A DNA stretch of 39,243 bases, from NCBI GenBank assembly GCA_003990765.1, contig RBNJ01000147.1, forward strand, positions 1-39,243, read 5' to 3'. The notes below the pieces were generated by a model that was given only the letters and a program-made list of their open reading frames with translations, had not been told where the DNA came from and did not search any database. The DNA comes from Jimgerdemannia flammicorona (Eukaryota). This document shows, piece after piece, positions 1 to 33,849 of the stretch. A program made the position numbers and the translations under genes. Numbering within the stretch: position 1 is the first letter of the stretch; each line of letters starts with the position of its first letter.

Positions 1-421
1 CCACTTGGCTACAGAGGCTTGGGCTTCATGAGGAACTAAGGCTAGAAAGACTGCTGCTGGTTGTCCTAGGTCACTCGGATTTGTGGAGCTGACAAAACTC
101 TTGTTGAGAAGAGTAAAGAAGGCTTCAATAAGACCTTCTTCGTCTTGACTTGCTGGGTGTAGTGCAAGGAGTTCGGTGAATAGGGTTTCACCTATTTGCT
201 GGTTTAACTTGAGTACTTCTTTCTTTGAATGAAGTTTATCCCACTTGTTGCAGGTGTGGAGGTCAAATTGTCCTTGTACATCAGGTTCAATTCTCTCCAG
301 ATTGTTGGATTTTTCAGATAAATTCCAGTTCAGAGGTTGGGCTTTATACCAACTTGTAGGAATTTGCAGAAGGGTTTGTAGCAGGGTGAGGAAGCGTCTT
401 GAAGCGGAATTGGTTTGTAAA

Positions 422-433
422 CCACTGCTACCA
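422..433 (-). other. Primer-binding site, probably initiator tRNA-Met
   Basis: TGGTAGCAGTGG lies 3 nt after the LTR end. The four-copy consensus TGGTAGCAGCGG fits the ...GCTACCA 3' end typical of eukaryotic tRNA-iMet. Confidence 0.75.
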
Positions 434-919
434 AGTTGTAAGAGGGTTACTTTTTAGGGTGACTGTTATGTAGTTCTGGAAGGGTTTTCTAGATATTCTA
501 GATGTTCTGGAAGACCTTTTTCTTTATGGTCAAGATCAATTTCATATGGAGTACGTCCTCTACACTTATTGATTTCAAGATCAGGTTGATGTCTCAACCA
601 AAGTCCTTTTCTGGACTAGTTCTGGATGTTCAGGATTTTCCATATTTCAGGAGGTTCGAGAAACTAAGACCAGCTTAGTTGAATTGGTGTATCGCTGCAG
701 ACAATACCCAATTAGGAAATTTCATGATGGGGTTAGGAGTAGGACCTAACAGGAAGCAGATTTTACTTAAGAGTGGTTTGTGGGTTATAGAATAGGTTTA
801 TTTGCTATTCATGATATTGCTATACTAGGAGTATTTGTGTAAAGGGGTATTGTGGGGAAGTGCTCAGGAGTTGTGTTCGGATTGTTCAAGTCTGAGATTC
901 TGAGGTCTGGGGGAGGGGG

Positions 920-927
920 TATTTATA
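920..927 (-). promoter_or_regulatory. LTR TATA box (TATAAATA)
   Basis: GTATAAATACCC is conserved across family-1 LTRs (e.g. 7392, 24781, 33352). An AATAAA lies about 120 nt downstream (e.g. 7515..7520). Confidence 0.65.
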
Positions 928-1116
928 CTAGTGAGGGGCTATCTGGACTATGCTAGATATAGATGTAGCACTAAGTGCCTTGCTGAGTCGGAATGCAGTC
1001 ACGTAGTACAAGTGTGATCTGATATATCAAGAGATCATCTGACTGCTGAGTCAGTTCACAGTCACGTCATACAATACTAATCTAACTATACTATGACTGC
1101 TAGGCTATTTATGGGT

Positions 1117-2319
1117 TTAGGTGCTGTCTGGGTAGTCCTCGATGACATCACCATCAATTGCATCATCTCTGATGAAGTAGTTGTCTAGGAAGAGTGGTTC
1201 ACAGATTACTTCTCCTTGTTGGCTGAGGTAGTAATACATTGGGACTTCATCTCTGTCCCACAGAATAGCATCATCTGTCTCGTAGGCTGGATAAGGTGTT
1301 GGTGGGCGAAGGATGGGTGTATTGTCTTCGCTTTCGTTGGATTCACTGTCTGCATACCTTCTATAGGTTATGGCACTATGAGTTGCAGGATTGTAGTAAG
1401 CTGGCAGCTGTGGTTCATGTCGCTTGTACTCAGGTGGTGGAGTGGTTGGTTCGATCTTAAGGGTTGTCTGAAGGTACAGATTGTGTTCTCCAGTCTCTTC
1501 ATTGTAATTGAAGTAATCAGGGGTGAATGCGGGTTAGTATTCGTACCAGTGGTCATTGTCCCAATAAGTCTTGTATGCAGTTATGAACTGTTGCAAGTTC
1601 ATCGGCAAGTTTGGTAGTGTGATCAGGGTTGGCAGAGATCCTTGGCTAGAGGTCATATCAGCATCAGAGGGATCATTGTCTTCTGCTTTATCTTCGTCGA
1701 AGTAGATTATATCATAGACATCCTTTATGGTATATCCGACTTAAGGCATTTGCAGGATGTGGTCATCAGGGTGCAGGAAGGTTCTGTCTGTGGTTTCGAC
1801 ATACTCGAGGTACTTGTGGTTGAGTTCTTGTATCATGTCATCGATTTGGCCATAGGACAGGGTAGCAACCATTTCGCTGGTAGTGACTCGGAGGCAGGGA
1901 ATAAAGATATTGTACTCATAGAAGAGTTCTCGATGTTTGCAGGCAATGAGCTTCTGGTGTTGAGACATCTGGGTAATGTCTATATCATGGTGGTGTTTGA
2001 CCATGTCTTCCAGGAGGCAGCCGATCTGGTAGTAGCTTGAGATTTGTCCGATTTGGTGGGCCTCGCTAAGCATGTTCAGGGCATTCCATCGGGCTTCCAT
2101 AAAGTAGAGGGGTGCCAGGCTATGGATATTCATAAGGGGCAGAGGGGGTGTGGCTCGGTTGATAATGGCATTCCAAATGTCAGCATGGATATGGTTGTAG
2201 ATCTCAGTGGTCATGTTTGTGTGTTTGGAAGTTGTGATTGTTGTTTGTTTTGGTTCTTTGATTTGACGCATCTTGGTGCTCGGTATATATACATTTGGTC
2301 CTGATTGGTAAGATTCCAT
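1117..2319 (-). pseudogene. LTR(U3)-encoded ORF of unknown function, 365 aa from the ATG at 2214 (400 aa from 2319), with two premature TAA stops
   Basis: One frame reads MTTEIYNHIHADIWNAIINR...NYFIRDDAIDGDVIEDYPDST*. Both internal stops are CAA (Gln) in at least one other LTR copy. The 1098-nt length is identical in B's 5' LTR. Confidence 0.85.
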
Positions 2320-2502
2320 TTGTATAAATCTTGTGTTCTATGACTTTGTATTGACTCAGCTTTGTGCGCTGTGACTTCGGTTTGACTCAGCTTTGTGATC
2401 AAGCAGGTGATTTCCAGATTTGTTCAGAGGTCACGTGTAATTTTGGTGGCTTGTTCAGAGGGTGACGTGTACTTTCGGTGGCTTGGAGGTTGTGTGCTTA
2501 CA

Positions 2503-5838: not shown

Positions 5839-5841
<3 letters not shown>

Positions 5842-5990: not shown

Positions 5991-6393
5991 TATAAGAGGA
6001 TTGCTTTTTAGGGTAACTATTACATAGTTCTGGAAGGATTTTCTGGAAGTTCTAGATATTCTGGAAGACTGTTTTCTTATGGTCAAGATCAATTTCATAT
6101 GGAGTATGTCCTCTATGCTTATTGATTTTAAGATCAGGTTGATGTCTCAACCAAAGTCCTTTTTTGGACATTCAGGATTTTTCATATTTCAGGAAGTTCA
6201 ATAAACTAAGACCAGCTTAGTTGCATTGGTGTATCGCTGCAGACAATACCCAATTAGGAAATTTTGTGATGGGGTTAGGAGTGGGACCTAACGGGGAGTG
6301 GATTTACTTAAAAGTAGTTTGTGAGTTATTAAATAGGTTTATTCGCTATTTATGATATTGCTATACTAGGAGTAGTTGTGTAAAGGGATATTG
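5991..6393 (-). repeat. 3' LTR of copy B, distal part (split by copy C)
   Basis: Matches about 437..850 of the D LTR and resumes at 12755 after the TATTG duplication. Confidence 0.92.
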
Positions 6394-7878
6394 TGTAAGC
6401 ACACAACCTCCAAGCCACCAAAATCGCATGGCATCCTCAGAACTAATTTGGAAACCACATGCAAGACTACAAAACAAGAGATCATCTGGTTATATGAAAT
6501 ATGCCAGTAAGTATGAGAACCCACTACCAAGATACAAGAATACTAGAAGAAGTACTACAACCATAAGACTGACTCTGAACTGCTATAACTAGTTTGGTGT
6601 ACTGTACTATTACAAAAGAAAACCAAAAGTACCAAACTCAAATTGAGACAAAAAGAACCCTATCTCATTTACCAAAAGGTTCATGAACTGCACTTATCAA
6701 CTCAAAGATTAAGATACACTGTGACTATATAAGACCTCATTATTTAGCAGAAGCAAAAACATATTTGAATAACTCTGTTCACTCTATCTGTGTCACCTCT
6801 GTTGGAGAGTGACAGACACTTCATCTGAACTCAAGAAAGCTGACAATGTCGAAACCAATCTCAAGCCATCTACGTGACAGATATTACTACTAGAAATTGC
6901 CTCAGATTACAGAAAATATCATTTCCAAGAGGTTTGAACCCCCAGCCATGATATTGGAAGCCCTTGCTCTAGACGAGAATGGCCAGTCCTTGCAAATGCA
7001 CTAGCAGACCAAAAAAAAAAGAGAACCAAGACCTGTTATCTTTGTACAACCACCGCCACCAAGGATAGCCTTAATCTTACAAGAGATAGAAGTGACAATA
7101 TCTTGAAACTGATGATGTCAGAAGTCAGAAAACTGCTCAGACTTTGCTAGCAATGATGTCATCAATAGTGATGTCATCAAAGACTAACCAGACAGTACCT
7201 AAATCTATAAATAGTCTAGCAGTCATAGTATAGTTAGATTAGCCTTGTACGATATGACTGTGAACTGACTCAGCAGTCAGACGATCTCTTGACATGTCAG
7301 ATCACACTTGTACTACATGACTGCATTCTGACTCAATAAGGCACTTAGTGCTATATCCATATTTAGCATAGTCCAGATAGCCCCTCACTAGTATAAATAC
7401 CCCCTCCCCCAGATCTCAGAATCTCAGACTCGAATACACAAGAATATTCTTGAACACTTCTCCACAATATCTCTTTACACAACTACTTCTAGTATAGCAA
7501 TATCATGAATAGCAAATAAACCTATTTAATAACCCACAAACTACTCTTAAGTAAATCTGCTCCCTGTTAGGTCCCACTCCTAGCCCCATCATGAAATTTC
7601 CTAATTGGGTATTGTCTGCAGCGATATGCCAATTCAACTAAGCTGGTCTTAGTTTCTTGAACTTCCTGAAATACAGAAAATTCTGAACATTCAGAACTAG
7701 TCCGAAAAAGGACTTTGGTTGAGACGTCAACCCGATCTTGAAATCAATAAGCATAGAGGATATACTCCATATGAAATTGACCTTGACTATAAAAAAACGG
7801 TCTTCCAGAATATCCAGAACTTCCAGAAAACCCTTCCAGAACTATGTAATGGTTACCCTAAAAAGCAACCCTCTTACA
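6394..7878 (+). repeat. 5' LTR of copy C (1485 bp, short type)
   Basis: Direct repeat of 11272..12754. It shares only the first ~60 bp and last ~725 bp with the long LTR type. Confidence 0.93.
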
Positions 7879-10800
7879 ACTTGGTAGCAGCAGTTTACAA
7901 TCCCATTCTACTTCAAGATGCTTCCTCACCCCGCTACAAACCCTTCTGCGAATTCCTACAAGTTGGTATAAAGCCCAACCTCTGAACTGGAATTTATCCT
8001 AAACCATCTGACAATCTGGAGAGAATTGAACCTGATGTACAAGGACAATTTGACCTCCATACCTGCAACAAGTGAGACAAACTTCACTCAAAAGAAGAAG
8101 TACTCCAATTAAATCAGCAAATAGGTAAAGCCCTATTCACCGAACTCCTTGCTCTATACCCAGCAAGTCAAGATGAAGAAGGTCTTATAGAAGTCTTCTT
8201 TACTCTTCTCAACAAGAGTTTTGTCAGCTCTATAAATCCGAGTGACCTAGGACAACCAGCAGCAGTCTTTCTAGCCATAGTTCTGCATGAAGCTCAAGCC
8301 TCTGTATCCAAGTGGCTCAACTCTACTGACTTTCACCATACTAGGACTAAGACCACATTATACTACTGATTCCAGAATAGCAAGGCCTGCTATATTCTTA
8401 AAGAAGAAGCAAGAGAAACCCTTCATCAGCTATCTGACCCCAAACCAGAAGCAGGCCTAGCTACAGCTCTACCTGAATCTGAAACCAATACTGAACCAGA
8501 ACTTGACTTTGAATTAAGTCCATCTGAAATCAGATATACAACTGATTCTGTCTACTTTGACACCGAGCAAACCCAATTACACAGGGACCAAACCGAAGAG
8601 GAGGAGGAGTATCTCAGTGAATTCAATCCCGGATACACCACCAAAGGAGATACACCTCCATCAGGCCAGAACACACCTACACAACAACAAACAGTTATCT
8701 ATCAAGCCCTCACTCCAGACCCACAAATACTACTCCAGCAACTTACACAGACCCAAAGAACACCCTCACACTCTGCACCAGTACCTCAAGTAGTACCAGT
8801 AACACTATTACCAGTAGTCCAACCACCTCCAGTAAACAATATGGCAAACCAACAGATTCTAGACCTCATAGCCCAGGTAGCAATAATGGCAGCAACCATT
8901 ACAGCCCTAGCTGAACAGAACCAACCTACCAAAAATCTGAGCCTACCTACCTTCAATGGTACTGCACAAGAAGTCCAAAGCTTCATTAGTGTAGTTGACA
9001 CCAACTTTGAAGTCAATCAATGGACCAATGAGTGAGTTGCTGACCATGTTCTTACAAACAATCAAGACCACACTCTGGAACAACTCTTTGCTACCACTAC
9101 AGCCTATGTCTGCTGAGTTGTTACATTCTTCCGAGGACCTGCTGAAGAATGGTGGCAAACCCTTCCTGAAAAACCCCTCACATGGGACACCCGACCTGCA
9201 GTAGTTGCTCAGAATGCAGCAAACAATGCCCCAGGATATGGAGCTCATCCTGCAGCCCCTGGACTCAAACAACTCATGATTGCTCAATACCACAGTGAAA
9301 CTATGATTGCCAAATCTCGAGTAAAACTCTGTAACCTCAAATTCGATGTACATGGTAAAGAAGAATTCAAAACCTTCTGTACAAAACTCAAGTCACTCCT
9401 AAACACTGTTGGCCTAAGATATATTACCAATGATGAAGCATGAAATAGTACAAGAGCAGACCATTTATTCGATGCCCTATCTGAATGGCTTACTAGAAAA
9501 ATCCGGGAATAAGGGCACCCAGTTGGTTGTGATCACCAACAATAGTGCCTGGTAAGAATCAAGACTATGGTTAAGCGAATCCTAACAGCTGGACCAATTC
9601 TGCCCTGAAGACAATTCAACAACAAGGAAAAGACTTGGACCAAGAAAGAAGAACCCAAGCATGAAGCATCCCAAGCTCCCTCAACATCCACTTTATAGAC
9701 CCCTAGAAATCACAAGCCCACCCAGCCGAGTACCTTTAAGAAACTCACTGAAGGTGAAAGGAATGAACTTCAAAGAAGTGGAGCATACTTCTATTGCTGA
9801 AAGACAGGACACATGGCCAGTGCCTGTCCTAACCGAAAACCCCAAACAGCAACACGAGCAACTGTTACTACTCTGCACCACCTCAATAACCTGACCACCA
9901 GAACTCTAGACTTTGTCAAGTTAAAACAAACTGCCAAAGCCCCAACCAAAGGAAGTCAAAAGACAGCTGGATATGACCTGTATGCAGCTGAAGAAGCTAC
10001 AGTTTCCAACCGAGAAGTCAAGCAAGTCTATACAGGAATCAGTATCCAAATTCCTGAAGGACATGTTGGAAGAATATGCTGTCGCAGCAGCCTAGCATTG
10101 AAAGGACTCTCAGTAGAAGGAGGAGTTATTGACAAAGATTATACAGGTGAAATTATTGTCCTCATCCAAAACCACAGTTGGACACCCTTCAAGATCCCTA
10201 TAGGCTTCTGCATTACTCAGATCCTATTTGAAAAAATCGAGTCAAACCTGACAGTCAAAGAAGTCCCTGAACTACTACCCACCATCCAAGGATCCAAAGG
10301 ATTTGTCTCATCAAACAAGGCCCCAGCCCAACCTACCATGAACAAAGAAGAACAATTCTATAAGAAAATCGAAGATGGATATGTACCAAGTGGCTGATGT
10401 CTCCATGGCATTGAAATGTACTCTTCTCGAATAATTGATGATTGCTTCTCTTGTGTCAATGAACTGGCTCAAAGAAGAACCAATAGAAGGAAAGCTCCTA
10501 TAACCGAAATCACTACCATTGGATCAAACAAACTGCTTACACTTAAGGCTTTTGTCAACCGAGCACTTGTCAAGATTATGATAGACAGTGGTGCCTCAGG
10601 CAACTTCATCAATGAAGAAACAGCCAACAGACTTAAGGTCTTCACCTCTCCGGTATAACAAACTCAAGCAGTTGCCACAGCTGATGGAACCTCACATGTC
10701 ATTAGCAAAGAAGTCCACAATCTGCCCTTCCAAATTGATGACTATCGAGTACATGTTACCCTCCAGATTGTACTGCTCTCTGACAACAAAATCATCCTTG

Positions 10801-11100
10801 GAACTCCATGATTAAAACAAGAGAACCCCATGATCGATTGGGTAAATCATTCTCTGACTATCAAGAAAGGACACCACAACTTCAAGCTGTAAGGCGAAAA
10901 GGACCCACTCAGTTCTAGTGACCCCGGACCAAAGATCACTCATATCAACAAGCTACAACTCAAGAAATTGGCCAAGAAATGCCCTCTCTTCGCTATCTCC
11001 ATCCATCCATCCAAAGGAGAACCCGAGAACTCTGAAGAAGACTTTTCCAAAGTTGACAGCTATGTTAGACCACTACTCCAGAAGGTCTGAGACACATTTC
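7701..11100 (+). pseudogene. gag-pol: Copy C polyprotein: N-terminal extension, Gag (CCHC), dUTPase, aspartic protease; truncated at the start of RT
   Basis: The ORF pieces at 7719, 8841, 9813 and 10416 share one frame, broken by transition-type stops. Motifs: LPTFNG, FRGPAEEWW, a knuckle reading CFFC.KTGH.ASA. in B and HMASAC in C, and IMIDSGASGNFI. Confidence 0.9.
9906..10313 (+). CDS. dut: Trimeric dUTPase domain of the polyprotein (stop-free in this copy)
   Basis: All five dUTPase motifs are present: AGYDL, GRICCRSSLA, GGVIDKDYTGEI, I(A/T)QIL and consensus RGSKGFGSS (QGSKGFVSS in this copy). It is not a stand-alone gene; it lies within ORF 9813..10397. Confidence 0.93.
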
Positions 11101-11271
11101 CGAACCGAACTACAAAACCACCTACACCTGTTATTATCAATGACTAAGAAGAATACAAAGTTGAACAAATCCTCAATAAACACAGCCACAAGAACCATCC
11201 AAATAGTACAACAACACCAGAACAAATTAGAAGACCCCGATGAGGATGTCGAAAGCTAAGAAGGGGAGAGT

Positions 11272-12754
11272 TGTAAGCGTACAACCTCCAAGCCACCAAA
11301 ATCACATAGCATCCTCAGAACTAATTTGGAAACCACATGCAAGACTACAAAACAAGAAATCATCTGATTACACAAAATATGCCAGCAAGCATGAGAACCC
11401 ACCACCAAGATATAAGAATACTAGAAGAAGTACTACAACCATAAGACTGACTCTGAACTGCTATAACTAGTTTGGTATACTGTACTATTACAAAAGGAAA
11501 CCAAAAGTACCAAACTCAAATTGAGACAAGAAGAACCTATCTCATTTACCAAAAGGTTCATGAACTGCACTTATCAACTCAAAGACCAAGATATACTGTG
11601 ACTATACAAGACCTCATTACTTAGCAGAAGCAAAAACACATTTAAACAACTCCGTTCGCTCTATCTGTGTCACCTCAATTGGAGAGTGATAGACACTTCA
11701 TCTGAACTCAAGAAAGCCGACAATGTCAAAACCAATCTCAAGCCATCCACATGACAGATATTACTACTAGAAATTGCCTCAGATTACAGAAATATCATTT
11801 CTGAGAGGTTCGAACCCCCAGCCATGACATTGGGAGCCCTCGCCCTAGACGAGAATGGCCAGTCCTTGCAAATGTGCCAGCAGACCAAAAAAAAAAGAGA
11901 ACCAAGACCTGTTATCCTTATACAACCACTGCCACCAAGGATAGCCTTAATCTTGCAAGAGATAGAAGTAACGACATCTTGAAACTGATGATGTCAGAAG
12001 TCAGAAAACTGCTCAGACTTTGCCAGTGATGATGTCATCAATAGTGATGTCATCAAAGACTAACCAGACAGCACCTAAATCTATAAATAGTCTAGCAGTC
12101 ATAGTATAGTTAGATTAGCCTTGTACAATATGACTGTAAACTGACTCAGCAGTCAGATGATCTCTTGACATATCAGATCACACTTGTACTATGTGACTGC
12201 ATTCCGACTCAGCAAGATACTTAGTACTACATCCATATTTAGCATAGTCCAGATAGCCCCTCACTAGTATAAATACCCTCTCCCCCAGACCTCAGAATCT
12301 CAGACTCGAATACACAAGAACATTTCTGAACACTTCCCCACAATATCTCTTTACACAACTACTCCTAGTATAGCAATATCATGAATAGTAAATAAACCTA
12401 TTTAATAACCCACAAACCACTCTTAAGTAAATCCGCTCCCTGTTAGGTCCCACTCCTAGCCCTGTTACGAAATTTCCTAATTGGGTATTGTTTGCAGCGA
12501 TACGCCAATTCAACTAAGCTGGTCTTAGTTTCTTGAACTTTCTGAAATACGGAAAATCCTGAACATCCAGAACTAGTCCGAAAAAGGACTTTGGTTGAGA
12601 CGTCAACCCGATCTTGAAATCAATAAGCATAGAGGACATACTCCATATGAAATTGACCTTGACCATAAGAAAATGGTCTTCCAGAATATCCAGAACTTTC
12701 AGAAAACCCTTCCAGAACTATGTAACAGTTACTCTAAAAAGCAACCCTCTTACA
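11272..12754 (+). repeat. 3' LTR of copy C (1483 bp)
   Basis: Follows the PPT; direct repeat of 6394..7878. Confidence 0.93.
11379..12032 (+). pseudogene. Putative alternative U3 ORF of the short LTR type (about 217 codons, unknown function); second copy starts at 6501
   Basis: MPASMRTHHQDIRILEEVLQP...DILKLMMSEVRKLLRLCQ, with several stops each one transition from CGA, CAA, CAG or TGG. A second frame (about 11539..11982) is also mostly open, so the frame is uncertain. Confidence 0.45.
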
Positions 12755-14417
12755 TATTGTGGGGAAGTGTTCAGAAATGTTCTTGTGTATTCGAGTTTGA
12801 AATTCTGAGATCTGGGAGAGGGGGTATTTATACTAGTGAGGGGCTATCTGGACTATGTTAGATATAGATATATGTAGTACTAAGTACTTTGCTGAGTCAG
12901 AATGCAGTCACATAGTACAAGTGTGATCTGATATGTCAAGAGATTGTCGGACTGCTGAGTCAGTTCACAGTCATGTCATATAAGGCTAATCTAACTATAC
13001 TATGACTGCTAAGCTATTTATAGATTTAGATGCTGTCTGGATAGTCTTCGATAACATCACTATCGATTGCATTATCTCTGATGAAGTAGTCATCTAGAAA
13101 GAGTAGTTCATGGATTACTTCTTCTTGTTGGCTAAGGTAATAATACATTGAAACTTTGTCTCTGTCCCACAGGATAGTATCATCTGTCTCATATGCTGGA
13201 TAAGGTGTTAGTGGGTGAAGGAGGAGTACATTATCTTCACTTTCATCGGATTCACTATCTGCATACCTTCTATAGGTTACAGCACTATAAGTCGCGAGGT
13301 TGTAGTAAGCTGGCAGCTGTAGTTCATATCACTCATACTCAGGTAGTGGAGTTGTTGGTTCGATCTCGAGAGTTGTCTGAAGGTACAGATTGTGTTCTTC
13401 AGTCTCTTCATTGTAGTTGAAGTAATCAGGGGTAAATGCAGGTTGGTATTCATGCCAATAGTCATTGTCCCAATAGGTCTCATAGGTGGTTATGAACTGT
13501 TGTAAGTTCATTAGCAAGATTGGTGGACTGATCAGAGTTAGTAGAGATCCTTGGCTTGAGGTCATGTCAGTATTGGCAGGATTATTGTCTTCTGCTTCAT
13601 CTTCATCAAATCGGATTATATCATAGACATCCTTCATGGCATATCCGACTTGAGGCATTTGCAGGATATGGTCATCAGGGTGTGGGAAGGTTCTGTCTAT
13701 AGTCTGGATGTATTCGAGGTACTTGTGGTTGAGTTCTTGTATCATGTCATCGATTTGGCTGTAGGACAGAGTAACAACTATTTTGCTGGTAGTAACTCAG
13801 AGGTGGGGAATAAAGGTGCTGTACTTGTAGAAGAGTTCTCTGTATTTGCAGGCAATGAGCTTCTGGTGTTGAGACATCTAGATAATGTCTGTATTGTGGT
13901 AATGTTCAACCATATCTTCTAGGAGGCAGCCAATCTGGTACATAGTAGCTTGAGATTTGTCTGATCCAGTGGGTCTCATTAAGTATGTTCAGGGCATTCC
14001 ATTGGGCTTCCACAAAGTAGAGGGGTGCTAGACTATGGATATTCATAAGGGGCAGAGGGGGTGTGGCTCAGTTGACAATGGCATTCCAAATGTCAGTGCA
14101 GATGTAGTTGTAGATCTCAGTGGTCATATTGTGTATGTTCAGAAGTTGTGGTTTGTTGTTTGTTTTGGTTCTCTGTTTCATCATGTCTTGATACTTGGTA
14201 TATATGCATTTGGTCCTGATTGATAAGATTCCATTTGTGTGAATCTTGTATTCTGTGACTTCGTGTTGACTCAGCTTTGTGTACTGTGACTTTGGTTTGA
14301 CTCAGCTTCATGATCATGCAGGTAATTTACATATTTGTTCAGAGGTTGCATGTGATTTTGGTGGCTTATTCAGAGGGTGACATGTGATTTCTGTGGCTTG
14401 GAGGTTGTATGCTTACA
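12755..14417 (-). repeat. 3' LTR of copy B, proximal part
   Basis: Starts TGTAAGCATAC at 14417, right after the PPT, and is colinear with the long LTR type. Confidence 0.92.
13026..14127 (-). pseudogene. LTR(U3) ORF copy in B's 3' LTR (4-bp insertion near 13940, stops)
   Basis: Includes ORF 13329..13745 (MIQELNHKYLEY...); homologous to 1117..2214. Confidence 0.82.
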
Positions 14418-14782
14418 ACTCTCCCCTTCTTAGCTTTCGACATCCTCGTCGGGGCCTTCTAATTTTGTTCTAGTATTGTTACACTGTTTGGGAGATCAAA
14501 AGTCTGGTAAAGTTCATTTTTTTCAGAAAGTGGTATGCTCGTAGTACAGTTGCCTAACATGTTGGATTCACATATTAAAGGGTCATGTATTCAATGCTAT
14601 ATACTGGAAGTGATTCTGATGTCATTCACTGCTAGAGAATTTTCTCTAAGAAATCTTCTTAAATATCTATACCTCATTTCCCACCAGTGGTACAGAGAGA
14701 ATAGGCTTGCTTTCAGTTTTGTTATTTTTTCTGAGGGTTGGTATTGTTTTGTCTTGACTTGCTGAGTTCTTGATTTGTTCAT
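14414..14782 (-). pseudogene. Putative small extra ORF (~120 codons) between pol and the 3' LTR, copy B
   Basis: MNKSRTQ...KLKASLFSLYHWWEMRYRYLRRFLR...; the consensus of copies A, B and C continues to RRPRRGCRKLRRGEL* (B has a 1-bp insertion near 14465). Confidence 0.45.
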
Positions 14783-14847
14783 GATAATTATAATATTTAG
14801 GAGAGTAATATATAGTATATACTGATAGGTGTCAGAGTATTCGGGTT

Positions 14848-15154
14848 TCAGTTATTCAGGGAATTGTATTCCTGAACTAAGTCAGTAGTATTCTGGAGAT
14901 TGGTCTTGGGTTCCCAAGTTGCATCATGAATTGAATATCCTTTCCATTTGACAAGATACTCAGGGTGGTTCTTGTGGCCATGTTTGTTGAGGATTTGTTC
15001 AACTTCATACTCTTCTTGGTCATTAATAATGATAGGTGCAGGTGGTTTCATGGTTCAGTTTGGGAATAGCTCATCATTGTTATCATTGTATCGCTTGAGA
15101 CATTGGACATTGAAGACTGGGTGAATCTTAATGGTATCTGGTAGCACCAATTTG

Positions 15155-15191
<37 letters not shown>

Positions 15192-18100
15192 GTCAATAGC
15201 ACCAATTTGTAGGAGGTTAGAGAGACTTGTGCAATGACTTCAAATGGTCCAATGAACTTGCTGTTCAGCTTTGTAGATGGTCTGTGCTTAAGATTGTCAA
15301 CTCGGTATCCTCGGATATCTAGTAGAACTTTTTCACCAATATCAAAGGTTTCTTTGCAGTAGTGTTGGTTAACATACTGTAACTGTTGTTCTTAAGCTCA
15401 TGATAAATTCTCAATCATGATCTGGCTTATATTGCACATTCGGAGCAGAAATTCTTCAACAGCTTCAACTGTAGAGGTTTCTTCAGTGGTTTAGATAAGT
15501 GTCAGAGGAGTGTTTGGGTTTTGTCCAGTGTTGGCAAAGAATGGAGTTATTCCAAGAGAGGCTTGCTTGCTGTTGTTATAGGCAAACTCAATTGCAGTGA
15601 GGTGTTCATGCCAATCATCTTGTCTATAGAAAACATAGTTCCTTAGCATTTGTTTCAGAGTTCGGTTTATTCTTTCAGTTTGGCCATCAGTTTCAGAGTG
15701 AAAGGCTGTGGATAGTTCAAGTTTTGTTCCAAGGTATGTATAGAGGGTTTTCCAAAAATAGCTAGTAAATTTTGGATCTCAGTCACTAACAATGATCTTA
15801 GGAAGACCATGATAGCAGAAGATATTGTCAAATAAGAGTGTAGCTATATCTGATGCTATTGCAGTGGTAGTAGTTGGCACAAAGTGGGCTTGTTTGCTGA
15901 GATAGTCTACAAAGACAACAATTGCATCTTTCCTATTCTTGGTTCAGGGTAGTTATACAATGAAGTCTATAGAGATTTGTTCCCAATTAACAGATGGTAC
16001 CAGGATAGGGTGGAGTAGGCCAGATTTTGCTAGTATTGAGAACTTGTTACATTGGCAGGCATCACAGATAGTGATGTAAGTCTTTAGCTGATCTGCCATG
16101 CGGGGCTAATAGAAGTTTTGGGAAATAACCTCATAGCATTTGTCAAATCCTAAATGTCTGGCCGTAGGTGCATCATGACATTCAAATAGGATAGTTCTTC
16201 AGAGGTCTCAGTTGTTTGGAATATACAATCTGTCCTTGTAGTAGATAGCATTGTCCTTGAGTTGGTATTGGTTGTACCAGATATGCTTGTCAGCATCATC
16301 ACTGTTCAGGATTTCTCGGAGTACTTGGGCTTTCTTGTCATCAGCACATGCTGCGATAATTTGTTCCATGGTGGAGTTTGTAACCAGAGTGAGAGTTTGG
16401 ATAACTTCTTCAATGGGTGATCTCAAGATTGCATTGGCAACAATATTTTCCTTGCTAGGGCAGTACTGGATTTCATAGTCAAAGTTGGTGAGAACTTTCA
16501 TCCATCTGGCTTGCTTTCGAGAAAGAGTAGCCTGGGTCTTGATGTTGACTAATGACTTATAGTCAGTCAATACAGTGAAGTATGCTCCTTCTAGGTATAG
16601 TCACTATTGATCAGAGTGTCTACGATGGCTAATATTTCCTTCTTGTGAGTTGCATAGTTGATTTTGGCATCATTGAACTTGTGGGAATAATAGGCCACAG
16701 GGTGTCCTTCTTGCATGAGCACTGCTCTAAGGGCTAGGTCAGAGGCATTAGTAGTAACTTCATATAGTAGGGCAGGGTTTGCCGCTTGAAGTACTGGAGT
16801 GGTTATCAAGATATCTTTCAATACTTGAAAGGCTATATCTTATTCAGGTCCCCAATTTACAAGGTTGTTGAAGTCTTTTTTTTGTTTTGTAGTCCAAGGC
16901 TGTTCTTCTTTCTTGCTGTGCTTGGTCATTTGGATAAGGGTAGTAGTGATTTTGGCAAAATTGGCAACAAATCGTCTGTAATAATTTACTAATCTCAGGA
17001 ATGACTGTAGGTCCTTCAGCTTCTTAGGTCTGGACTAATTCTTAATCGCAGAGATTTTGCTAGGGTCCACTTTAATTCCATTTGGTGTGACAATGTATCT
17101 AAGGAATTGGATTTCTTTTAGAAGAAATTTGCACTTGCTGAGTTTTGCAAAGAGTTGGTTTTCTCAGAGTTTCAGTAATACTAGTTTAAGGTGTTTAAGA
17201 TGTTCCTCCAGGGTTTTGCTGAAGACTAGAATGTCATCAATGTAGACAACAATGAATTTGTCCAGGTATGGGTGCAGAATAGTATTCATCAGTGTCTGGA
17301 AGGTTGCAGGAGCATTAGTTAAGCCAAATGGCATAACCAGGAACTCGAAGTGTCCATAGTGAGTTCAGAAGGCTGTCTTGTAGATGTCTTCTTCTTTCAT
17401 GGCAATTTGCCAGTAATCATTTCGCAGGTCAAAAGAGCTCATGAATTGTGGATTGGTGAGTCTATTGAATATTTCATTGATTCTGGGTAGTGGGTAGTAG
17501 TTCTTGATGGTCTGTTCATTGAGGTCATGGTAATTAATACATATTTACAGGTCTTCTCCTTTCTTGACAACAAAGAGGACTGGTACACCATAGGGTGATA
17601 CACTAGGTCTGATGAATCCTTGTTCTAGGAGTTTGTCAATTTCTTTCTTGAGTGCATTAATTTTTCTAGAAGACATGTGGTAGATTGACTTGAAGGCTGG
17701 CTTGGCATCTGGGATAGTCTTGATGGTATAGTCTACTGCTCATTTAGGAGGTAGGCCTTTCAGAAGCTTCTTTGGAAATATGTCTCGGAATTTCTGGAGT
17801 AGTGGTCTGACATGGCTGTCAACTTTGGAAAAGTCTTCTTCAGAGTTCTTGGGTTCTCCTTTGGATAGGCAGATGGAGATGGTGAAGAGAGGGCATTTCT
17901 TGACTAACTTCTTGAGTTGTAGCTTATTAATATGGGTGATCTTTGGTCCAGGGTCACTAGAACTGAGTGGGTCATTTTTGCCTTGTAGTTTGAAGTTGTG
18001 GCATCCTTTCTTGATGGTCAGAGAATGGTTTACCTAATCAATCATGGGGTTCTCTTGTTTCAACCATGGGGTTCCAAGAATGATCTCATTGTCAGAAAGT

Positions 18101-21100
18101 AGTATGATCTAGAGGGTAACATGTACTCAATAGTCACCAATTCAGAAGGGCAGATTGCAGACTTCTTTGTTAATGACATGTGAGATTCTATCAGCTGTAG
18201 CAACTGCTTGAGTTTGTTGTACTGGAGAGGTGAAGACCTTAAGTCTATTGACTGTTTCTTTATTGATGAAGTTGCCTGAGGCACTGCTGTCTATCATAAT
18301 CTTGACAGGTGCTTGGTTAACAAAAGCTTGGAGTGTAAGCAGTTTGTCTGATCCAATGATGGTGATTTCAGTTGTAGGAGTTTTTCTTCTATTGGTTCTT
18401 TTTTGAGCCAATTCATTGACACAAGAGAAGCAATCATTGATCATTCACAAAGAGTACATTCCAATACCATGGGGGCATCAGCCACTTGGTATATATCCAT
18501 CTTCAATTTTCTTATAGAATTGTTCTTCTTTGTTCATAGTAGGTTGGACTGGGGCCTTGTTTGATGAGCCAAATTCTTTGGATCCTCGGATGGTAGATAG
18601 TAGTTCAAGGACTTCCTTGACTGTCAGAGTTGACTCAATTTTTTCAAATAAGATCTGGGCAATGCAGAAACCTATAGGGATCTTGAAGGGTGTCCAACTG
18701 TAGTTTCAGATAAGGACAATAATTTCACCTGTGTAATCTTCATCAATGACTCCTTCTTCTACTGAGAGTCCTTTCAGTGCTAGGCTGCTGCGACAGCATA
18801 TTCTTTCAACATATCCTTCAGGAATTTGGATGCTGATTCCTGTGTAGACTTGCTTGACTTCTCAGTTGGAAACTGTAGCTTCTTTGGATATATATAGGTC
18901 ATATCCAGCTGCTTTTTGACTTCCTTTAGTTAGGGCCTTAGCAGTTTGTCTTAACTTGACAAAGTCCAGTGTTCTGGTAGTCAGGTTATTGAGGTAGTAC
19001 AGAGTAGTAACTGTTGCTCATATTGCTGTTCAGAGTTTTCAGTTAGGGCAGACACTGGCCATGTGTCCTGTCTTTCAGCAAAAGAAGCATGCTTCACTTC
19101 TTTGAAGTTCATTTCTTTCTCCTTCAGTGAGTTTCTTGAAGGTACTCGGCTGGGTGGGTTCATGCTTTCTAGGGGTCCATGAAGTGGATATTGAGAGAGC
19201 TTGGGATGATTCATGCTTGGGTTCTTCTTTCTTGGTCCAAGTTTTTTCCTTGTTGTTGAATTGTCTTTGGGGCAGAATTGGTCCAGCTGTTAGGATTCGC
19301 TTGACCATAGTCTTGATTCTTGCCAAGCACTATTGTTGGTGATTGCAACCAACTGGGCAGCCTTGTTCTTGGATTTTTCTAGTAAGCCATTCAGGCAGGG
19401 CATCGAATAAATGATCTGCTCTTATACCATTTCATACTTCATCATTGGCAATATATCCTAGGCCAACAGTGTTCAGGAGTGACTCGAGTTTTGTACAGAA
19501 GGTTTCGAATTCTTCTTTGCCATGTACATCGAATTTGAGATTGCGGAGTTTTACTTGGGATTCAGCGATCATGGTTTTGCTGTGGTATTGAGCAATCATG
19601 AGTTGTTTGAGTCCAGGGGCTACAGGATGGGCTCCATATCCTGGGGCATGTTTGCTGCATTCTGAGCAACTACTGCAGGTCGGGTGTCCCATGTGAGGGG
19701 TTTTTCAGGAAGAGTTCACCACTATTCTTTGACAGGTCCTCGGAAGAATGTAACAACTCAGCAGACATAGGCTGTGGGGTAGCAAAGAGTTGTTCCAGGG
19801 TGTGGTCTTGATTGTTTATCAGGAGGCAGTCAGCAACTCACTCATTGGTCCATTGATTGGCTTTGAAGTTGATATCAACTACACTAATAAAGCTTTGGAC
19901 TTCTTGTGCAGTATCATTGAAAGTAGATAGGCTCAGATTTTTGGTAGGTCAGGTCTGTTCAGCTAAGGCAGTAATGGTTGCTACCATTATAGCTATCTGG
20001 GCTGTAAGGTCTAGAATCTTTTGGTTTGCCATGTTGTTTGCTAGAGGCAGTTGGACTGCTGGTAGTGGTGTTACTGGTACTACTTGAGGTACTGGTGCAA
20101 AGTGTGAGGGTGTTCTTTGGATCTGTGTAAGTTGCTGGAGTAGTAGTTGTGGGTCTGGAGTGAGGGCTTGATAGATAGCTATTTGTTGCTGTGTGGGTAT
20201 ATTCTGGCCTGATGGAGGTGTGTCTCCTTCAGGAGTGTATCTGGGATCGAATTCACTGAGATACTCCTCCTCCTCTTTGGTTTGGTCCCCATATAATTGG
20301 GTTTGCTCTGCATCAAAGTAGACAGAATCAGTTGTATATCTGATTTCAGATGGACTTAATTCAAAGTCAAGTTCCAGTTCAGTATTGGTTTCAGATTCAG
20401 GTAGAGCTGTAGCAGGGCCTGCTTTAGGTTCAGGGTCAGATAGTTGATGAAGGGTTTCTCTTGCTTCTTCCTTAAGAATATGGCGGGCCTTGCTGTTCTA
20501 GAATCAGTAGTATAATACAGTCTTGGTTCTGGTATGGTGAAAGTCGGTAGAGTTGAGCCACTTGGCTACAGAGGCTTGGGCTTCATGAGGGACTAAGGCT
20601 AGAAAGACTGCTGCTGGTTGTCCTAGGTTGCTCAGATTTGTAGAGCTAACAAAACTCTTATTGAGAAGAGTAAAGAAGGCTTCAATAAGACCTTCTTCAT
20701 CTTGACTTGCTGGGTATAGTACAAGGAGTTTGGTGAATAGAGTTTTGCCTATTTGCTGGTTTAATTGGAGTACTTCTTTCTTTGAATGAAGTTTGTCCCA
20801 CTTGTTGCAGGTGTGGAGGTCAAATTGTCCTTATATATCAGGTTTAATTCTCTCCAGATTGTCAGATGGTTCAGGATAAATTCTAGTTCAGAGGTTGGAC
20901 TTTATACTAACTTGTAGGAATTTGCAGAAGAGTTTGTAGCAAGGTGAGAAAGCATCTTGAAGTGGAATTGGATTGTAAATCACTGCTACCAAGTTATAAG
21001 AGGGTTGCTTTTTAAGGTAACTGTTACATAGTTCTGGAAGGGTTTTCTAAAAGTTCTGGATATTCTGGAAGATTATTTTCTTATGGTCAAAATCAATTTC

Positions 21101-21170
21101 ATATGGAGTATGTCCTCTATGCTTATTGATTTCAAGATCAGGTTGATGTCTCAACCAAAGTCCTTTTTTG
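14848..21170 (-). pseudogene. gag-pol: Copy B polyprotein: extension, Gag, dUTPase, PR, RT, RNase H, integrase, chromodomain (many stops)
   Basis: dUTPase at about 18563..18970; IMIDSSASGNF; YIDD at 17233..17244; RNase H TNASDLAL.AVLMQ...YATHKKEILAIV; HHCC and DDE integrase at about 15300..16180; chromodomain EEYEVEQILNK...EYLVKWKGY...ATWEP at 14848..15051. Confidence 0.93.
15142..15211 (-). mobile_element. Extremely 5'-truncated LINE insertion (about 8 nt plus A30) with 15-bp TSD
   Basis: TAGCACCAATTTGTA is duplicated at 15142..15156 and 15197..15211. The insert reads TTGACTAT(A)30 on the minus strand, matching the LINE end GCGACTAT(A)33. It is absent from copy A. Confidence 0.85.
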
Positions 21171-23058
21171 AACTAGTTCTAGATGTTCAGGATTTTCCAT
21201 ATTTCAGGAAGTTTAATAAACTAAGACCAGCTTAGTTGAATTGGCATATCGCTGCAGACAATACCCAATTAGGAAATTTCGTGACGGGGTTAGGAGTGAG
21301 ACCTAATGGGGAGCAGATTTACTTAAGAGTGGTTTGTGGGTTATTAAATAAGTTTATTCGCTATTCATGATATTGCTATACTAGGAGTAGTTGTATGAAG
21401 GGATATTATGGGGAAGTGTTTAGAAATGTTCTTGTGTATTCAAGTCTGAGATTCTGAGGTCTGGGAGAGGGGGTATTTATACTAGTGAGGGGCTATCTGG
21501 ACTATACTAGATATGGATATAGCACTAAGTACTTTGCTAAGTCAGAATGCAGTCATATAGTACAAGTGTGATCTGACATGTCAAGAGATCATCAGACTGC
21601 TGAGTTAGTTCACAGTCACATTATACAAGGCTAATCTAACTATACTATGACTGCTAAGCTATTTATAGATTTAGATACTGTCTGGATAGTCTTCAATGAC
21701 ATTATCATCGATTGTATCATCTCTGATGAAGTAGTCATCTAGGAAGAGTGGTTCATAGATTACTTCTCCTTGTTGGCTGAGGTAATAATACATTGGAACT
21801 TCATCTCTGTCTCACAGGATAGCATCATCTGTCTCATATGCTGGATAAGGTGTTGGTGGGCAAAGGAGGGGTGTATTGTCTTCACTTTCATCAGATTCAC
21901 TGTCTGCATACCTTCTATAGGTTATAGCACTATGAGTCACAGGGTTGTAGTAAGCTGGCGGCTGTGGTTCATGTTGCTCATACTCAGGTAGTGGAGTTGT
22001 TTGTTTGATCTCAAGAGTTGTCTGAAGGTACAGATTGTGTTCTTCGGTCTCTTCATTGTAGTTGAAGTAATCGGGGGTGAATGTGGGTTGGTATTTGTAC
22101 TAATAGTCATTGTTCCAATAGGTCTCGTAGATGGTTATGAACTGTTGTAAGTTCATTGGCAAGGTTGGCAGGCTGATCAGAGTTGGCAGAGATCCTTGGC
22201 TTGAGGTCATGTCAGTATTAGCGGGATCATTGTCTTCTACTTCATCTTCATCAAATTGGATTATATCATAGACATCCTTCATGGTATATCTGACTTAAGG
22301 CATTTGTAGGATATAGTCATCAGGGTGCAGAAAGGTTCTGTCTGTGGTTTGGACATATTCGAGATACTTATGGTTGAGTTCTTATATCATATCATCGATT
22401 TAGCCATAGGACAGAATAGCAACCATTTCACTGGTAGTAACTCGGAGGCAGGGAATAAAGGTGCTGTACTCGTAGAAGAGTTCTTTGTATTTGCAGGCAA
22501 TGAGCTTCTGGTGTTGAGACATCTGGGTAATGTCTGTATCGTGGTGATGTTCGACCATATCTTCCAGGAGGCGGCCAATCTGGTAGTAGCTTGAGATTTG
22601 TTTGATCTGGTGGGCCTCATTAAGCATGTTCAGGGCATTCCATCAGACTTCTACAAAGTAAAGAGGTGCTAGGCTATGGATATTCATGAGGAGTAAAGGG
22701 GGTGTAGCTCAGTTGACAATGGCATTCCAAATGTCAGCATGGATGTAGTTGTAGATCTCAGTGGTCATGTTGTATATGTTCAGAAGTTATGGTTTGTTAT
22801 TTGTTTTGGTTCTCTGTTTTGTTGTGTCTTGATGCTCAGTATATATGCATTTGGTCCTAATTGGTAAGATTCCATTTATGTGAATCTTGTATTCCATGAC
22901 TTTGTATTAACTCAGCTTTATGTACTGTGACTTCAGTTTGACTCAGCTTTGTGATCATATAGGTGATTTCCATATTTATTCGGAGGTCGCATGTGATTTT
23001 GGTGGCTTATTCAGAGGGTGATGTGTGATTTCTGTAACTTAGAGATTGTATGCTTATA
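20995..23058 (-). repeat. 5' LTR of copy B (2064 bp)
   Basis: Colinear with the other long LTRs; both terminal dinucleotides are mutated to TA; followed by PBS 20980..20991. Confidence 0.92.
21671..22768 (-). pseudogene. LTR(U3) ORF copy in B's 5' LTR
   Basis: ATG ACC ACT GAG start and 1098-nt span as in copy D; contains ORF pieces 22400..22627 and 22100..22282. Confidence 0.82.
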
Positions 23059-23242: not shown

Positions 23243-25281
23243 TGTAAGCACACAATCTCCAAGCTACTGAAACCACATGTTACCTGCTGAATAAACCACC
23301 AAAATCACATGTAATCTCCAAACAAATCTGGAAATCATCTGCATGATCACAAAGCTGAGTCAATATGAAGTCATGGAATATAAGATTTACACAAACAGAA
23401 ATCTTACTAATCAGGACCAAATGCATATATACTGAGTACTGAGACACATCAAAATAGAGAACCAAAACAATCAACAAACCACAACTTCTGAACATATACA
23501 ATCATGATCACTGAGATCTATAACTGTATCTGTGCTGACATTTGGAATGCCATTGTCAACTGAGCCACACCCCCTCTGCTCCTCATAAATATCCATAGTC
23601 TAGCACCCCTCTACTTTGTGGAAGCCCAATGAAATGCCCTGAACATACTTAGTGAGGTCTACTGAATCAGACAAATCTCAAGCTACTACCAGATCAGCCA
23701 CCTTCTAGAAGACATGATCAAACACTACCACAATATAGACATCACTCAGATATCTCAACACTAGAAACTCATTGCCTGCAAACACCAAGAACTCTTTTAT
23801 GAGTATAGCACCATTATTCCCTGTCTCTGAGTTACTACTAGCAAAATTGTTACTACTCTTTCCTATGACCAAATTGATGATATAATACAAGAACTCAACC
23901 ACAAGTATCTTGAGTATATTCAGACTATAGACAGAACTTTCTCACACCTTGATGACCACATCCTGCAAATGCCTCAAGTCAGATATACCATGAAGGATAT
24001 CTATGATATAATTCAATTTGATGAAGATGAAGTAGAGAATAATAATCCCTCAGATACCGACATAATCTTAAGCCAAGGATCTCTGCCAACCCTAATCACA
24101 CTACCAACCTTGCTGATGAACTTACAATAGTTCATAACCATATATGATACTTATTGGAATAATGTGAATACTAATCTGCATTCACCCCTAATTACTTCAA
24201 CTACAATGAAGAGACTGGAGAACACAACCTGTACCTTCAGACAACCCTTAAGATCGAACCAACCACTCTACTACCCAAGTATGAGTGACATGAACCACAG
24301 CTGCCAGCTTACTACAACCTTGTGACTCATAGTGCTATAACCTATAGAAGGTATACAGACAGTGAATCTGATGAAAGTGAAGATGATGCATCACTCCTTT
24401 ACCTACCAACTCTATATCTAGCATATGAGACAGATGATGCTATCCTATAGAATAGTGATGAAGTCCCAATGTATTACTATCTCAGTAAACAAGGAGAGTT
24501 AATCTATAAATAACTCTTCCTAGACAACTACTTCATCAGAGATAATACCATTGATGGTGATATTATCAAAGACTACTCAGATAGCATTTAAATCTATAAA
24601 TAGTTTAACAATCATAGTATAGTTAGATTAGCCTTATATGACATAACTGTGAACTGACTCAGCAGTCAGACAATCTCTTGATATGTCAGATCACACTTGT
24701 ACTACATGACTACATTCTGACTCAGGAAGGCACTAAGTGCTATATCTATATCTAGTATAGTCTAGATAGCCTCTCACTAGTATAAATACCCCCTCCTCCA
24801 AACCTCAGAATCTCAGACTTGAATACTTGAACAATCTGAACACAACTCCTGAGCACTTCCCCACAATATCCCTTTATACAACTACTCCTAATATAGTAAT
24901 ATATATCATGAATAGCGAATAAACCTATTTAATAACCCACAAACTACTCTTAAGTAAATCTGCTCTCTATTAGGTCTCACTCCTAACCCCATCATGAAAT
25001 TTTCTAATTGGGTATTGTCTGCAGTGATATGCCAATTAAACTAAGCTGGTCTTAGTTTCTTGAACTTCCTGAAATATGGAAACTCCTGAACATCCAGAAC
25101 TAGTCTGAAAAAGGACTTTGGTTGAGACATCAACCCAATCTTGAAATCAATAAACATAGAGGACATACTCTATACAAAATTGATCTTGACCTTAAGAAAA
25201 CAGTCTTTCAGAATATCCAGAACTTCTAGAAAACTCTTCTTGAACTATGTAATGGTTACCCTAAAAAGCAATCCTCTCACA
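23243..25281 (+). repeat. 5' LTR of copy A (2039 bp)
   Basis: TGTAAG...CTCACA; direct repeat of 31777..33844. Confidence 0.93.
23504..24591 (+). pseudogene. LTR(U3) ORF copy in A's 5' LTR (10 bp shorter, stops)
   Basis: Homologous to 1117..2214. Confidence 0.8.
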
Positions 25282-31200: not shown

Positions 31201-31350
31201 CAAATCCTCAATAAATGTGGACACAAGAACCATCCTGAGTACCTGGTTAAATGGAAAGGTTACCTAATCCAAGATGCAACCTGAGAACCCAAGACCAACC
31301 TCCAGAATACTACTGACTTAGTTCAGGAATATGATTTCTTGAACAACTAA
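25105..31350 (+). pseudogene. gag-pol: Copy A polyprotein: extension, Gag, dUTPase, PR, RT, RNase H, integrase, chromodomain (many stops)
   Basis: dUTPase at about 27309..27715; DSG at 27976; MCIDYQDLN...MPFGLTNTPATF; YIDNI at 29023; ECHDASTAGHLGFDKCY...CDAC; MDFIVQLP...IIVSD; chromodomain at about 31180..31350. Confidence 0.93.
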
Positions 31351-31413
31351 AACTGAATATCCACTACCTATCAGTATATACTATATATTACCCTTCCAAA
31401 CATTATAATTATC

Positions 31414-31781
31414 ATGAATAAAATCAAGAACTCAGTAAAAAAAGATATAGAATATTGACTCTTTGGAAATTAGCAAAACTGAAAGCAAGCCTATTCTCTC
31501 TATACCACTGGTGGGAAATGAGGTATAGATATTTAAGAAGATTCCTTAGAGGAAATTCTCTAGCAGTGAATGATGTCAGAACCACTTCTGGCATATGGTA
31601 TTGAACACATGAGCCTTTAACATGTGAATCTAATGTGTTAGGCAACTGTACTATAAGCATACCACTTTCTGAGAAAAATGAACTTTACCAGACTTTTGAC
31701 CTCTCAAATGGTATAACAATACTAGAACAAATTAGAAGACCCTAACAAGGATGTCAAAAGCTAAGAAGGGGAGAGTTGTAA
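31414..31781 (+). pseudogene. Putative small extra ORF between pol and the 3' LTR, copy A
   Basis: Homologous to 14414..14782. The frame runs through the PPT and stops at TTG TAA overlapping the LTR start. Confidence 0.45.
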
Positions 31782-33844: not shown

Positions 33845-33849
33845 ATAGT

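Follow-up and report, generated by a model that had tools for sequence, protein, structure and literature searches.

The long LTRs and their reading frame

The DNA analysed here (39,243 nt of contig RBNJ01000147.1, referred to below as the window) contains a nest of one family of long terminal repeat (LTR) retrotransposons, as seen by self-comparison and by inspection of the element ends. The long LTRs of this family carry a homologous open reading frame (ORF) of 365 codons plus stop, which is the subject of this work. Three of the elements (A, B and C) are complete and each is flanked by a perfect 5-bp target duplication. A fourth element, D, extends beyond the left edge of the window. The elements and their LTRs are the following:

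437..2502, minus strand: full 5' LTR of element D (TGTAAG...CTTACA, 2066 nt)
5991..23058, minus strand: element B, complete; target duplication CTTAT; 5' LTR at 20995-23058
12755-14417 and 5991-6393, minus strand: 3' LTR of element B, split in two by element C
23243..33844, plus strand: element A, complete; target duplication ATAGT; LTRs at 23243-25281 and 31777-33844
6394..12754, plus strand: element C, a deletion derivative inside the 3' LTR of B; target duplication TATTG
6394-7878 and 11272-12754, plus strand: LTRs of element C (1485/1483 nt), without the cassette that holds the ORF

The long LTR measures about 2,066 nt and has the ends TGTAAG...CTTACA. An earlier reading of this DNA, made from the letters alone (the sequence-only reading), had given it ~1.65 kb; this length was not borne out, as ~490 nt more follow beyond the TATA box up to CTTACA, with the primer-binding site (PBS) next to it. 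The proposal that the ORF fills over half of the LTR held even at the corrected length (53%), and so did its placement on the sense strand upstream of the TATA box. The ORF occupies LTR positions 289-1386, that is, it begins 288 nt from the 5' end and stops 680 nt short of the 3' end of the LTR. In copy D the landmarks are arranged as listed here by LTR position:

114 and 145: TGAGTCA, two sites
212: TATATATA box
289: ATG of the ORF
1384-1386: stop codon of the ORF
1450 (window 1047-1053, minus strand): TGACTCA
1576 (window 920-927, minus strand): TATAAATA box
1701 (window 797-802, minus strand): AATAAA
2066: end of the LTR
window 422..433, minus strand: PBS, TGGTAGCAGTGG, 3 nt beyond the LTR end

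The PBS begins TGGTAGCAG... 3 nt downstream of the 5' LTR, and the polypurine tract (PPT) AAGAAGGGGAGAG lies 5' of the 3' LTR. Judged by these motifs, the U3 region probably spans positions ~1-1600 and is followed by a short R, which would hold the poly(A) signal, and by a U5 of ~360 nt. With this assignment the ORF would lie wholly in U3, upstream of both the TATAAATA box (1576) and AATAAA (1701). An additional in-frame ATG upstream (window 2319) is present in D and B only and precedes the U3-internal TATA box, TATATATA.

As the sequence-only reading had stated, the same sense-strand ORF was found in five of the five long LTRs (D5, B5, B3, A5 and A3, the numeral denoting the 5' or 3' LTR):

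1117..2214, minus strand: D5, 1098 nt; two TAA stops, at codons 158 and 227
21671..22768, minus strand: B5, 1098 nt; seven stops
13026..14127, minus strand: B3, 1102 nt; 4-nt insertion; four stops
23504..24591, plus strand: A5, 1088 nt; 10-nt deletion; ten stops
32067..33162, plus strand: A3, 1096 nt; 2-nt deletion; three stops; ATG changed to ATA

The length, described earlier as conserved, is 1098 nt in D5 and B5 but deviates in B3 (+4), A5 (-10) and A3 (-2). Similarly, the ending ...DYPDST, given before for all copies, was confirmed for D5 only; the other four end ...DSI (in A5, ...DYSDSI).

Six-frame scans of element A gave Pfam matches in the order dUTPase, RVP/gag-asp, RVT_1, RT_RNaseH, Integrase_H2C2, rve, SH3_Tf2-1 and Chromo, and a decayed CCHC knuckle near 27174, upstream of all these matches, marks gag. 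The internal order is gag, dUTPase, protease (PR), reverse transcriptase (RT), RNase H, integrase (INT), SH3 and chromodomain. On the strength of this domain set and of the gag knuckle, the carrier is a Ty3/Gypsy chromovirus with a dUTPase. It has the direct LTRs with TG...CA ends, the 5-bp duplications, the PBS and PPT, the PR-RT-RNase H-INT order and the C-terminal chromodomain of such elements. The dUTPase domain lies between gag and protease (window 27336-27716 in element A; Pfam PF00692, E = 2.8e-25) and has homologues in B and C; dUTPase domains in some fungal chromoviruses are already described (PMC2864245). Element C is non-autonomous and keeps gag, dUTPase and PR; most of its pol is gone, and its U3 has been exchanged for one that has no ORF.

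Decay of the copies and selection on the ancestral frame

All five ORF copies are broken. Together they contain 26 internal stops at 17 codon sites, and three of the five have frameshifts. The stops had been suggested to be sense codons in other copies, which proved true for 26 of 26, a sense codon standing at the same site in two or more of the other copies. With the exception of one site in A5 that requires two steps, a single C>T or G>A change suffices to derive each stop from CGA, CAA, CAG or TGG. The differences between the two LTRs of one element are of the same kind: within the ORF, 121 transitions versus 1 transversion were counted in B, and 141 versus 2 in A. The C>T decay followed the context order CpG (32-57% mutated) > CpA (16-24%) > CpC > CpT. 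A hypermutation specific for TpCpG was rejected, TCG being the least mutated of the CpG contexts. All five copies were thus inactivated after insertion by C>T hypermutation, and in the window they are pseudogenes.

The same pattern extends over the whole LTR pairs, in which 432 transitions and 10 transversions were counted, the change after insertion being nearly all C>T and G>A. Identity within the LTR pairs is 93% in C, 89% in B and 87% in A. If only transversions are counted (3 and 7 differences per ~2 kb), the insertions are young; since the decay consists almost purely of transitions, LTR identity greatly overstates their age.

The first stop of D5 (window 1743) could be followed in public sequencing runs, available as assembled contigs and including soil metagenomes, in which thousands of pieces of the family cover the LTR. 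In nearly all family contigs of four such runs this codon is CAA; in run X1 the A>G change accounts for 613.7 of 620.7 units of depth.

The ancestral sequence was approximated by a CpG-reverted consensus of the ORF copies. This consensus contains no internal stop over the 365 codons from the ATG, and it is open for 423 codons from stop to stop; a consensus that still had stops had been named beforehand as evidence against a gene. The five alternative frames of the consensus have 16-34 stops each (27-28 in the other two sense frames). Among 2000 composition-matched first-order Markov shuffles the longest open run was 252 codons, and none reached the length of the ORF. The base composition of the ancestral ORF is gene-like, with 30% G at codon position 1, 40% A at position 2 and 45% C at position 3.

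Because of the C>T hypermutation after insertion an ordinary dN/dS ratio is meaningless for this ORF. Transversions, in contrast, mostly predate insertion, since the LTR pairs within an element differ almost purely by transitions, and thus represent changes that went through cycles of retrotransposition; the selection test was therefore built on them. Twenty-six columns of the ORF alignment contain a transversion, distributed over codon positions 1, 2 and 3 as 7, 4 and 15. Fourteen of these are synonymous and 12 nonsynonymous, the expected synonymous share being 15.4% (binomial p = 6.6e-6), which corresponds to an omega of about 0.16. This is well below the value near 1 that would have spoken for neutral drift in the dN/dS comparison proposed earlier. 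When the same sites were read in the two shifted frames, omega was 0.8 and 3.2. In a permutation that kept the ancestral base, 17 of 29 events were synonymous in the real data against a mean of 4.9, and 0 of 20000 permutations matched this number. Three transversions occur in a single LTR of a pair and so date from after insertion; all of them are nonsynonymous, in line with neutrality. Applied to the eight pol Pfam domains of A and B, the same crude measure gave 16 transversions, 12 of them at position 3, and an omega of 0.14.

Relatives of the protein were sought by word-indexed searches, by exhaustive phmmer over 1.84 billion representative proteins and by a profile search. True relatives (E <= 1e-10) were only P0002 and P0003, and re-searching with the profile returned the same two. 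P0002 is an uninterrupted sequence of 247 amino acids, identical at 160 of 250 positions (64%), with the same C-terminus and with two in-frame gaps of two residues. P0003 (128 amino acids, 88% identity) shares the start codon, and it keeps Arg at sites that read Cys, His, Gln or stop in the copies of the window. When neutral drift of the ancestral ORF to 64% identity was simulated, 4.4-5.2 stops arose on average and a stop-free outcome had a probability of 0.4-1%. Of the 86 mismatches with P0002, 45 (52%) are conservative; the simulation gave 28%, with a maximum of 47% in 1000 runs.

Phmmer listed three further rows between 2.9e-05 and 9.6e-04 (P0004, P0005 and P0006). P0004 (E about 1e-4) matches only through a 36-amino acid repeat motif and was taken as a chance or low-information match; the matches of P0005 and P0006 are confined to stretches of ~40-45 amino acids. 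Two protein-pattern scans of metagenome contigs found no DNA of a relative, and a 26-nt degenerate pattern had no match in genome and viral contigs.

The earlier statement that the protein has no recognisable domain was upheld. A Pfam scan of the ORF protein at E <= 10 gave a single sub-threshold match (RAMP, 15 bits versus a cut-off of 27), and a PDB profile search gave 0 matches at E <= 1. The ESM Atlas contained no usable feature match, and structural neighbours of the P0002 model had TM scores of 0.30 or lower. The ORF is not gag, which lies with its CCHC knuckle in the internal region, nor is it a duplicate of another part of the element, as tblastn matched the five LTR copies only. As judged by these comparisons, the protein constitutes an orphan family.

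Taken together, these data make it very probable that the ORF is a once-functional protein-coding gene of the retrotransposon itself, which was under purifying selection during the spread of the family.

An alternative is passive capture, in which part of a host gene or of a different mobile element entered U3 by transduction and hitch-hiked there without serving the retrotransposon. Retrotransposons with gene fragments exist, 425 being given for maize in the text of PMC2774510, and in the account of the crapaud elements the section of fungal LTRs that is variable and modular is U3 (PMC10787394, main text). Moreover, the sister element C transposed without the segment, and transversions are no rarer in the ORF (about 1.6%, A versus B) than in the flanking parts of the LTR (about 1.7-1.8%). 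Capture is nevertheless improbable. The ORF is complete from its own start codon to its own stop; its omega is close to that of pol, and the synonymous excess of transversions appears in the ORF frame only. P0002 shows the excess of conservative substitutions together with two gaps that preserve the frame. No parent gene was found among the 1.84 billion representatives, in Pfam or in PDB, and a match to another transposable element, which had been named as a possible refutation, did not turn up among these representatives either. In its base composition the ORF agrees with gag-pol and is unlike the flanking DNA. A variant in which an old capture later became useful would merge with the reading as a selected gene.

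That the frame is a chance product of an A/C-rich, T-poor non-coding U3 may draw on the low T and G content of the consensus sense strand (20% and 18%), which lowers stop frequency, and on the absence of a domain, of a confident fold and of all but a few database relatives, but it is refuted at the level of the shuffles (none of 2000 exceeded 252 open codons, compared with 423), of the stops in the other two sense frames, of the synonymous excess restricted to the ORF frame and of the homologue P0002, which keeps the same frame at 64% identity, and it retains hardly any probability.

The reading as a selected gene has to be weighed against several observations. The selection test uses 26 sites from three element lineages, and the transversion density mentioned above shows no reduction in the ORF. 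Only two relatives, both fragmentary, were found in 1.84 billion proteins. P0002 comes from a database of called ORFs and its stop-free state is partly a matter of ascertainment, which leaves the conservative excess unaffected. Finally, all five copies in the window are dead.

Promoter-like modules, possible expression and the predicted product

Two groups of promoter-like motifs were recognized in the long LTR of element D, one on either side of the ORF:

2284..2389, minus strand: U3-internal promoter-like module (two TGAGTCA sites and TATATATA), with a putative function
797..1053, minus strand: putative genomic promoter and terminator of the LTR (TGACTCA, TATAAATA, AATAAA), common to the ORF-less LTR type

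The TGAGTCA sites of the first module (window 2383-2389 and 2352-2358) lie within a 31-nt tandem repeat, and the TATATATA box (window 2284-2291) is 77 nt before the ATG, so that the whole module occupies the interval 77-175 nt upstream of the ATG. The ATG itself has an A at -3. One unit of the 31-nt duplication, with its bZIP-type TGAGTCA, is missing from the 5' LTR of A. Upstream of either TATA box there are two TGASTCA sites. In the window as a whole, 23 TGASTCA sites were counted compared with 10.6 expected, mostly in LTRs and upstream of both TATA boxes.

Comparison with the LTRs of element C was informative about the boundaries of the ORF cassette. The C-type and the long type have in common only approximately positions 1-111 and 1340-2066; the middle of the C-type LTR consists of about 690 unrelated nt. 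This middle part was considered as a diverged ORF and rejected, as all of its frames contain 16-30 stops and no similarity extends past position 111. The common part includes the last 47 nt of the ORF, and because this remnant is retained, the C-type LTR appears to be derived from an ORF-bearing LTR. It also retains TGACTCA, TATAAATA and AATAAA, and their presence in both LTR types supports the shared 3' part as the genomic promoter and terminator. The module found only in the long type starts at the first TGAGTCA repeat and comprises the two TGAGTCA sites, the TATA box and the ORF. This suggested that the cassette missing from the sister LTR is a self-contained expression unit. The two promoter modules were also considered as duplicates of each other, which was rejected (best local alignment score 17, shuffle mean 17.7).

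These features can be combined into a possible route of expression. The U3-internal promoter, with its AP-1/Gcn4-type TGAGTCA sites and TATATATA box, would drive an mRNA of ~1.4 kb that crosses the ORF and is terminated by the poly(A) signal of the LTR itself. The ORF could then be expressed from any LTR, whether 5', 3' or solo. As the gene lies wholly inside the LTR, reverse transcription places copies of it at both ends of every new insertion. That the ORF formed its own transcription unit is, taken by itself, a plausible but tentative proposal. The full statement, an LTR-borne selected gene with its own transcription unit, was on balance considered probable, with less confidence than the gene as such.

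Alternatively, as proposed in the sequence-only reading, the ORF may have been expressed from the 3' LTR only, through a spliced or subgenomic mRNA starting at the normal LTR promoter. At the 3' LTR all of U3 is part of the genomic RNA, a possible acceptor-like sequence (CTTACCAATCAG|G) was noticed by eye ~90 nt before the ATG, and this route is usual for retroviral accessory genes. However, it would need an intron of ~8 kb, which would be atypical for a fungus, and the exchanged cassette includes a TATA box and bZIP-type sites near the ATG, which would be unneeded if the message were spliced. Since the TATA box and the bZIP-type sites travel with the ORF cassette, a promoter of its own was favoured, and the 3' LTR route seems improbable.

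The ORF protein has an isoelectric point (pI) of 4.4 and contains 8.5% Tyr and 7.7% Pro. There is no candidate for a membrane span, the best 19-residue Kyte-Doolittle window being 1.0. AlphaFold2, run with an eight-row alignment, gave a mean predicted local distance difference test score (pLDDT) of 31.9, and the Atlas model of P0002 has a pLDDT of 0.39. In the low-confidence model the N-terminal ~150 residues are predicted to be helical; the N-terminal half contains Arg. Strong acidity and many aromatic residues characterize the C-terminal half: net charge is -8 in the 30-residue window 331-360, and windows 301-330 and 316-345 contain 5-6 aromatics. The sequence-only reading had described the N-terminal half as helical and the C-terminal half as acidic and rich in Tyr and Pro, which agrees with composition and model, the helices being of low confidence.

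The sequence-only reading had suggested anti-silencing or host interaction as possible roles. As proposed here, the product would be a soluble, non-enzymatic, acidic protein with a trans-acting role, serving the element as regulator or adaptor. The nearest working model would be a Tas/Tax-like transactivator, which was chosen because an acidic-aromatic tail behind a helical domain resembles transcriptional activators; as an assignment based on composition it is doubtful. A more far-reaching and unlikely possibility is that the family represents a 'complex retrotransposon', in which each LTR would be a unit of promoter, gene and terminator, and the product would either activate transcription in the manner of Tas or counteract silencing by the host, to the benefit of the autonomous elements and, in trans, of ORF-less derivatives such as element C. 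If this were true, every 5', 3' and solo LTR of an abundant family would be a potential expressed gene, and a Ty3/Gypsy chromovirus of a probably fungal soil eukaryote would possess a retrovirus-style regulatory layer.

The proposals on expression and function meet with counterevidence of their own. The motifs of the promoter modules are short, and their recurrence is not independent support, since all five LTRs descend from one ancestor. The two modules have no more than an 11-nt TATA core in common, a match without significance, and U3, R and U5 owe their placement to motifs. Element C spread without the ORF in cis, as its LTR pair (93% identical) testifies; the gene was therefore dispensable in cis, and perhaps altogether. 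The protein has no confident fold model (pLDDT 32 by AlphaFold2 and 0.39 in the Atlas), and amino-acid composition is the sole basis of the transactivator idea.

Comparison with known systems, and the remaining DNA

Accessory genes distinguish 'complex' retroviruses from simple retroelements, and Ty3/Gypsy LTRs are regarded as regulatory sequence without coding capacity, which most annotation pipelines mask. The closest analogy in position is sag, the 'LTR ORF' in the U3 of the betaretrovirus mouse mammary tumour virus (MMTV). Both are long sense ORFs (about 320-365 codons) inside the U3 (for the present ORF, the presumed U3) of an unusually long LTR, and in both cases the gene is present at each end of the provirus or element. 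However, Sag is a type II membrane glycoprotein, and the ORF protein is acidic (pI 4.4), without a hydrophobic segment or any Pfam match above threshold; moreover, the carrier is a Ty3/Gypsy chromovirus and not a retrovirus. The analogy with sag that the sequence-only reading had drawn thus stood for the position in the presumed U3 but not for the protein, which has no membrane anchor.

Tas/Bel1 of foamy viruses and nef of the human and simian immunodeficiency viruses (HIV/SIV) are 3' accessory genes that overlap U3 and encode non-enzymatic trans-acting proteins. An internal promoter of its own and an acidic activation region at the C-terminus make Tas resemble the layout proposed for the LTR ORF. 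Those genes merely overlap U3, whereas the LTR ORF appears to lie wholly within it, and no similarity in sequence or fold between them and the ORF protein was found in the Pfam, PDB and Atlas searches.

Additional ORFs (aORFs) are known in LTR retrotransposons, as described in the texts on plant aORFs (PMC7264820), on ORF0 of Retrosat2 (PMC3485330) and on brtn of Boty (bioRxiv 10.1101/2021.04.13.439636). Like these, the ORF is an extra, lineage-restricted frame added to gag-pol, present in five of five long LTRs and in two outside homologues. The aORFs, as these texts place them, are internal (between LTR and gag or between pol and LTR), unlike the ORF described here, which lies inside the LTR itself; in the main text of the plant aORF review the phrases 'in the LTR' and 'within the LTR' have 0 occurrences (PMC7264820). 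Retrosat2 ORF0 is similar in being an orphan ORF of an element with very long LTRs but differs in its location upstream of gag-pol in the internal region, according to the text of PMC3485330. A parallel to the exchange of the cassette is provided by crapaud of Podospora: according to the main text of PMC10787394, related elements have the 3' half of the LTR in common, and their differences lie in the part of U3 that precedes the TATA box. This is also how the ORF-type LTR is distinguished from the C-type. The crapaud LTRs are only 339-443 bp long and that text mentions no ORF in U3, in contrast to the variable module of the present family, which is ~1.2 kb and protein-coding.

In the full texts consulted, extra ORFs of LTR retrotransposons were internal only and U3 ORFs occurred in retroviruses only. 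No Ty3/Gypsy element whose LTR contains a conserved protein gene was found in the main texts, and the 'add. ORF' table entries of PMC2864245 could hide a precedent. A gene located entirely within an LTR and kept by selection would double at each insertion and persist in solo LTRs, and an abundant repeat family could become a large source of one protein. The ORF also defines an orphan protein family with an experimental handle, an LTR reporter with or without the ORF.

The remaining parts of the window contain remnants of other elements. The interval 2503-5990 is richer in GC (about 50%) and has a poly(A) run near 5900 at its end; around 3660-4300 its plus strand encodes a remnant of a reverse transcriptase of the non-LTR type, similar to those of long interspersed nuclear elements (RVT_1, E = 4.5e-21). 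The interval 33845-39243 begins with an AT-rich flank (about 20% GC at 34-36 kb), and it contains a 1.47-kb unit in tandem (35687-37157 and 37156-38628), the two copies of which are 85% identical to each other. This unit contains, on the minus strand, the SH3 part of an integrase from another, diverged Gypsy element.

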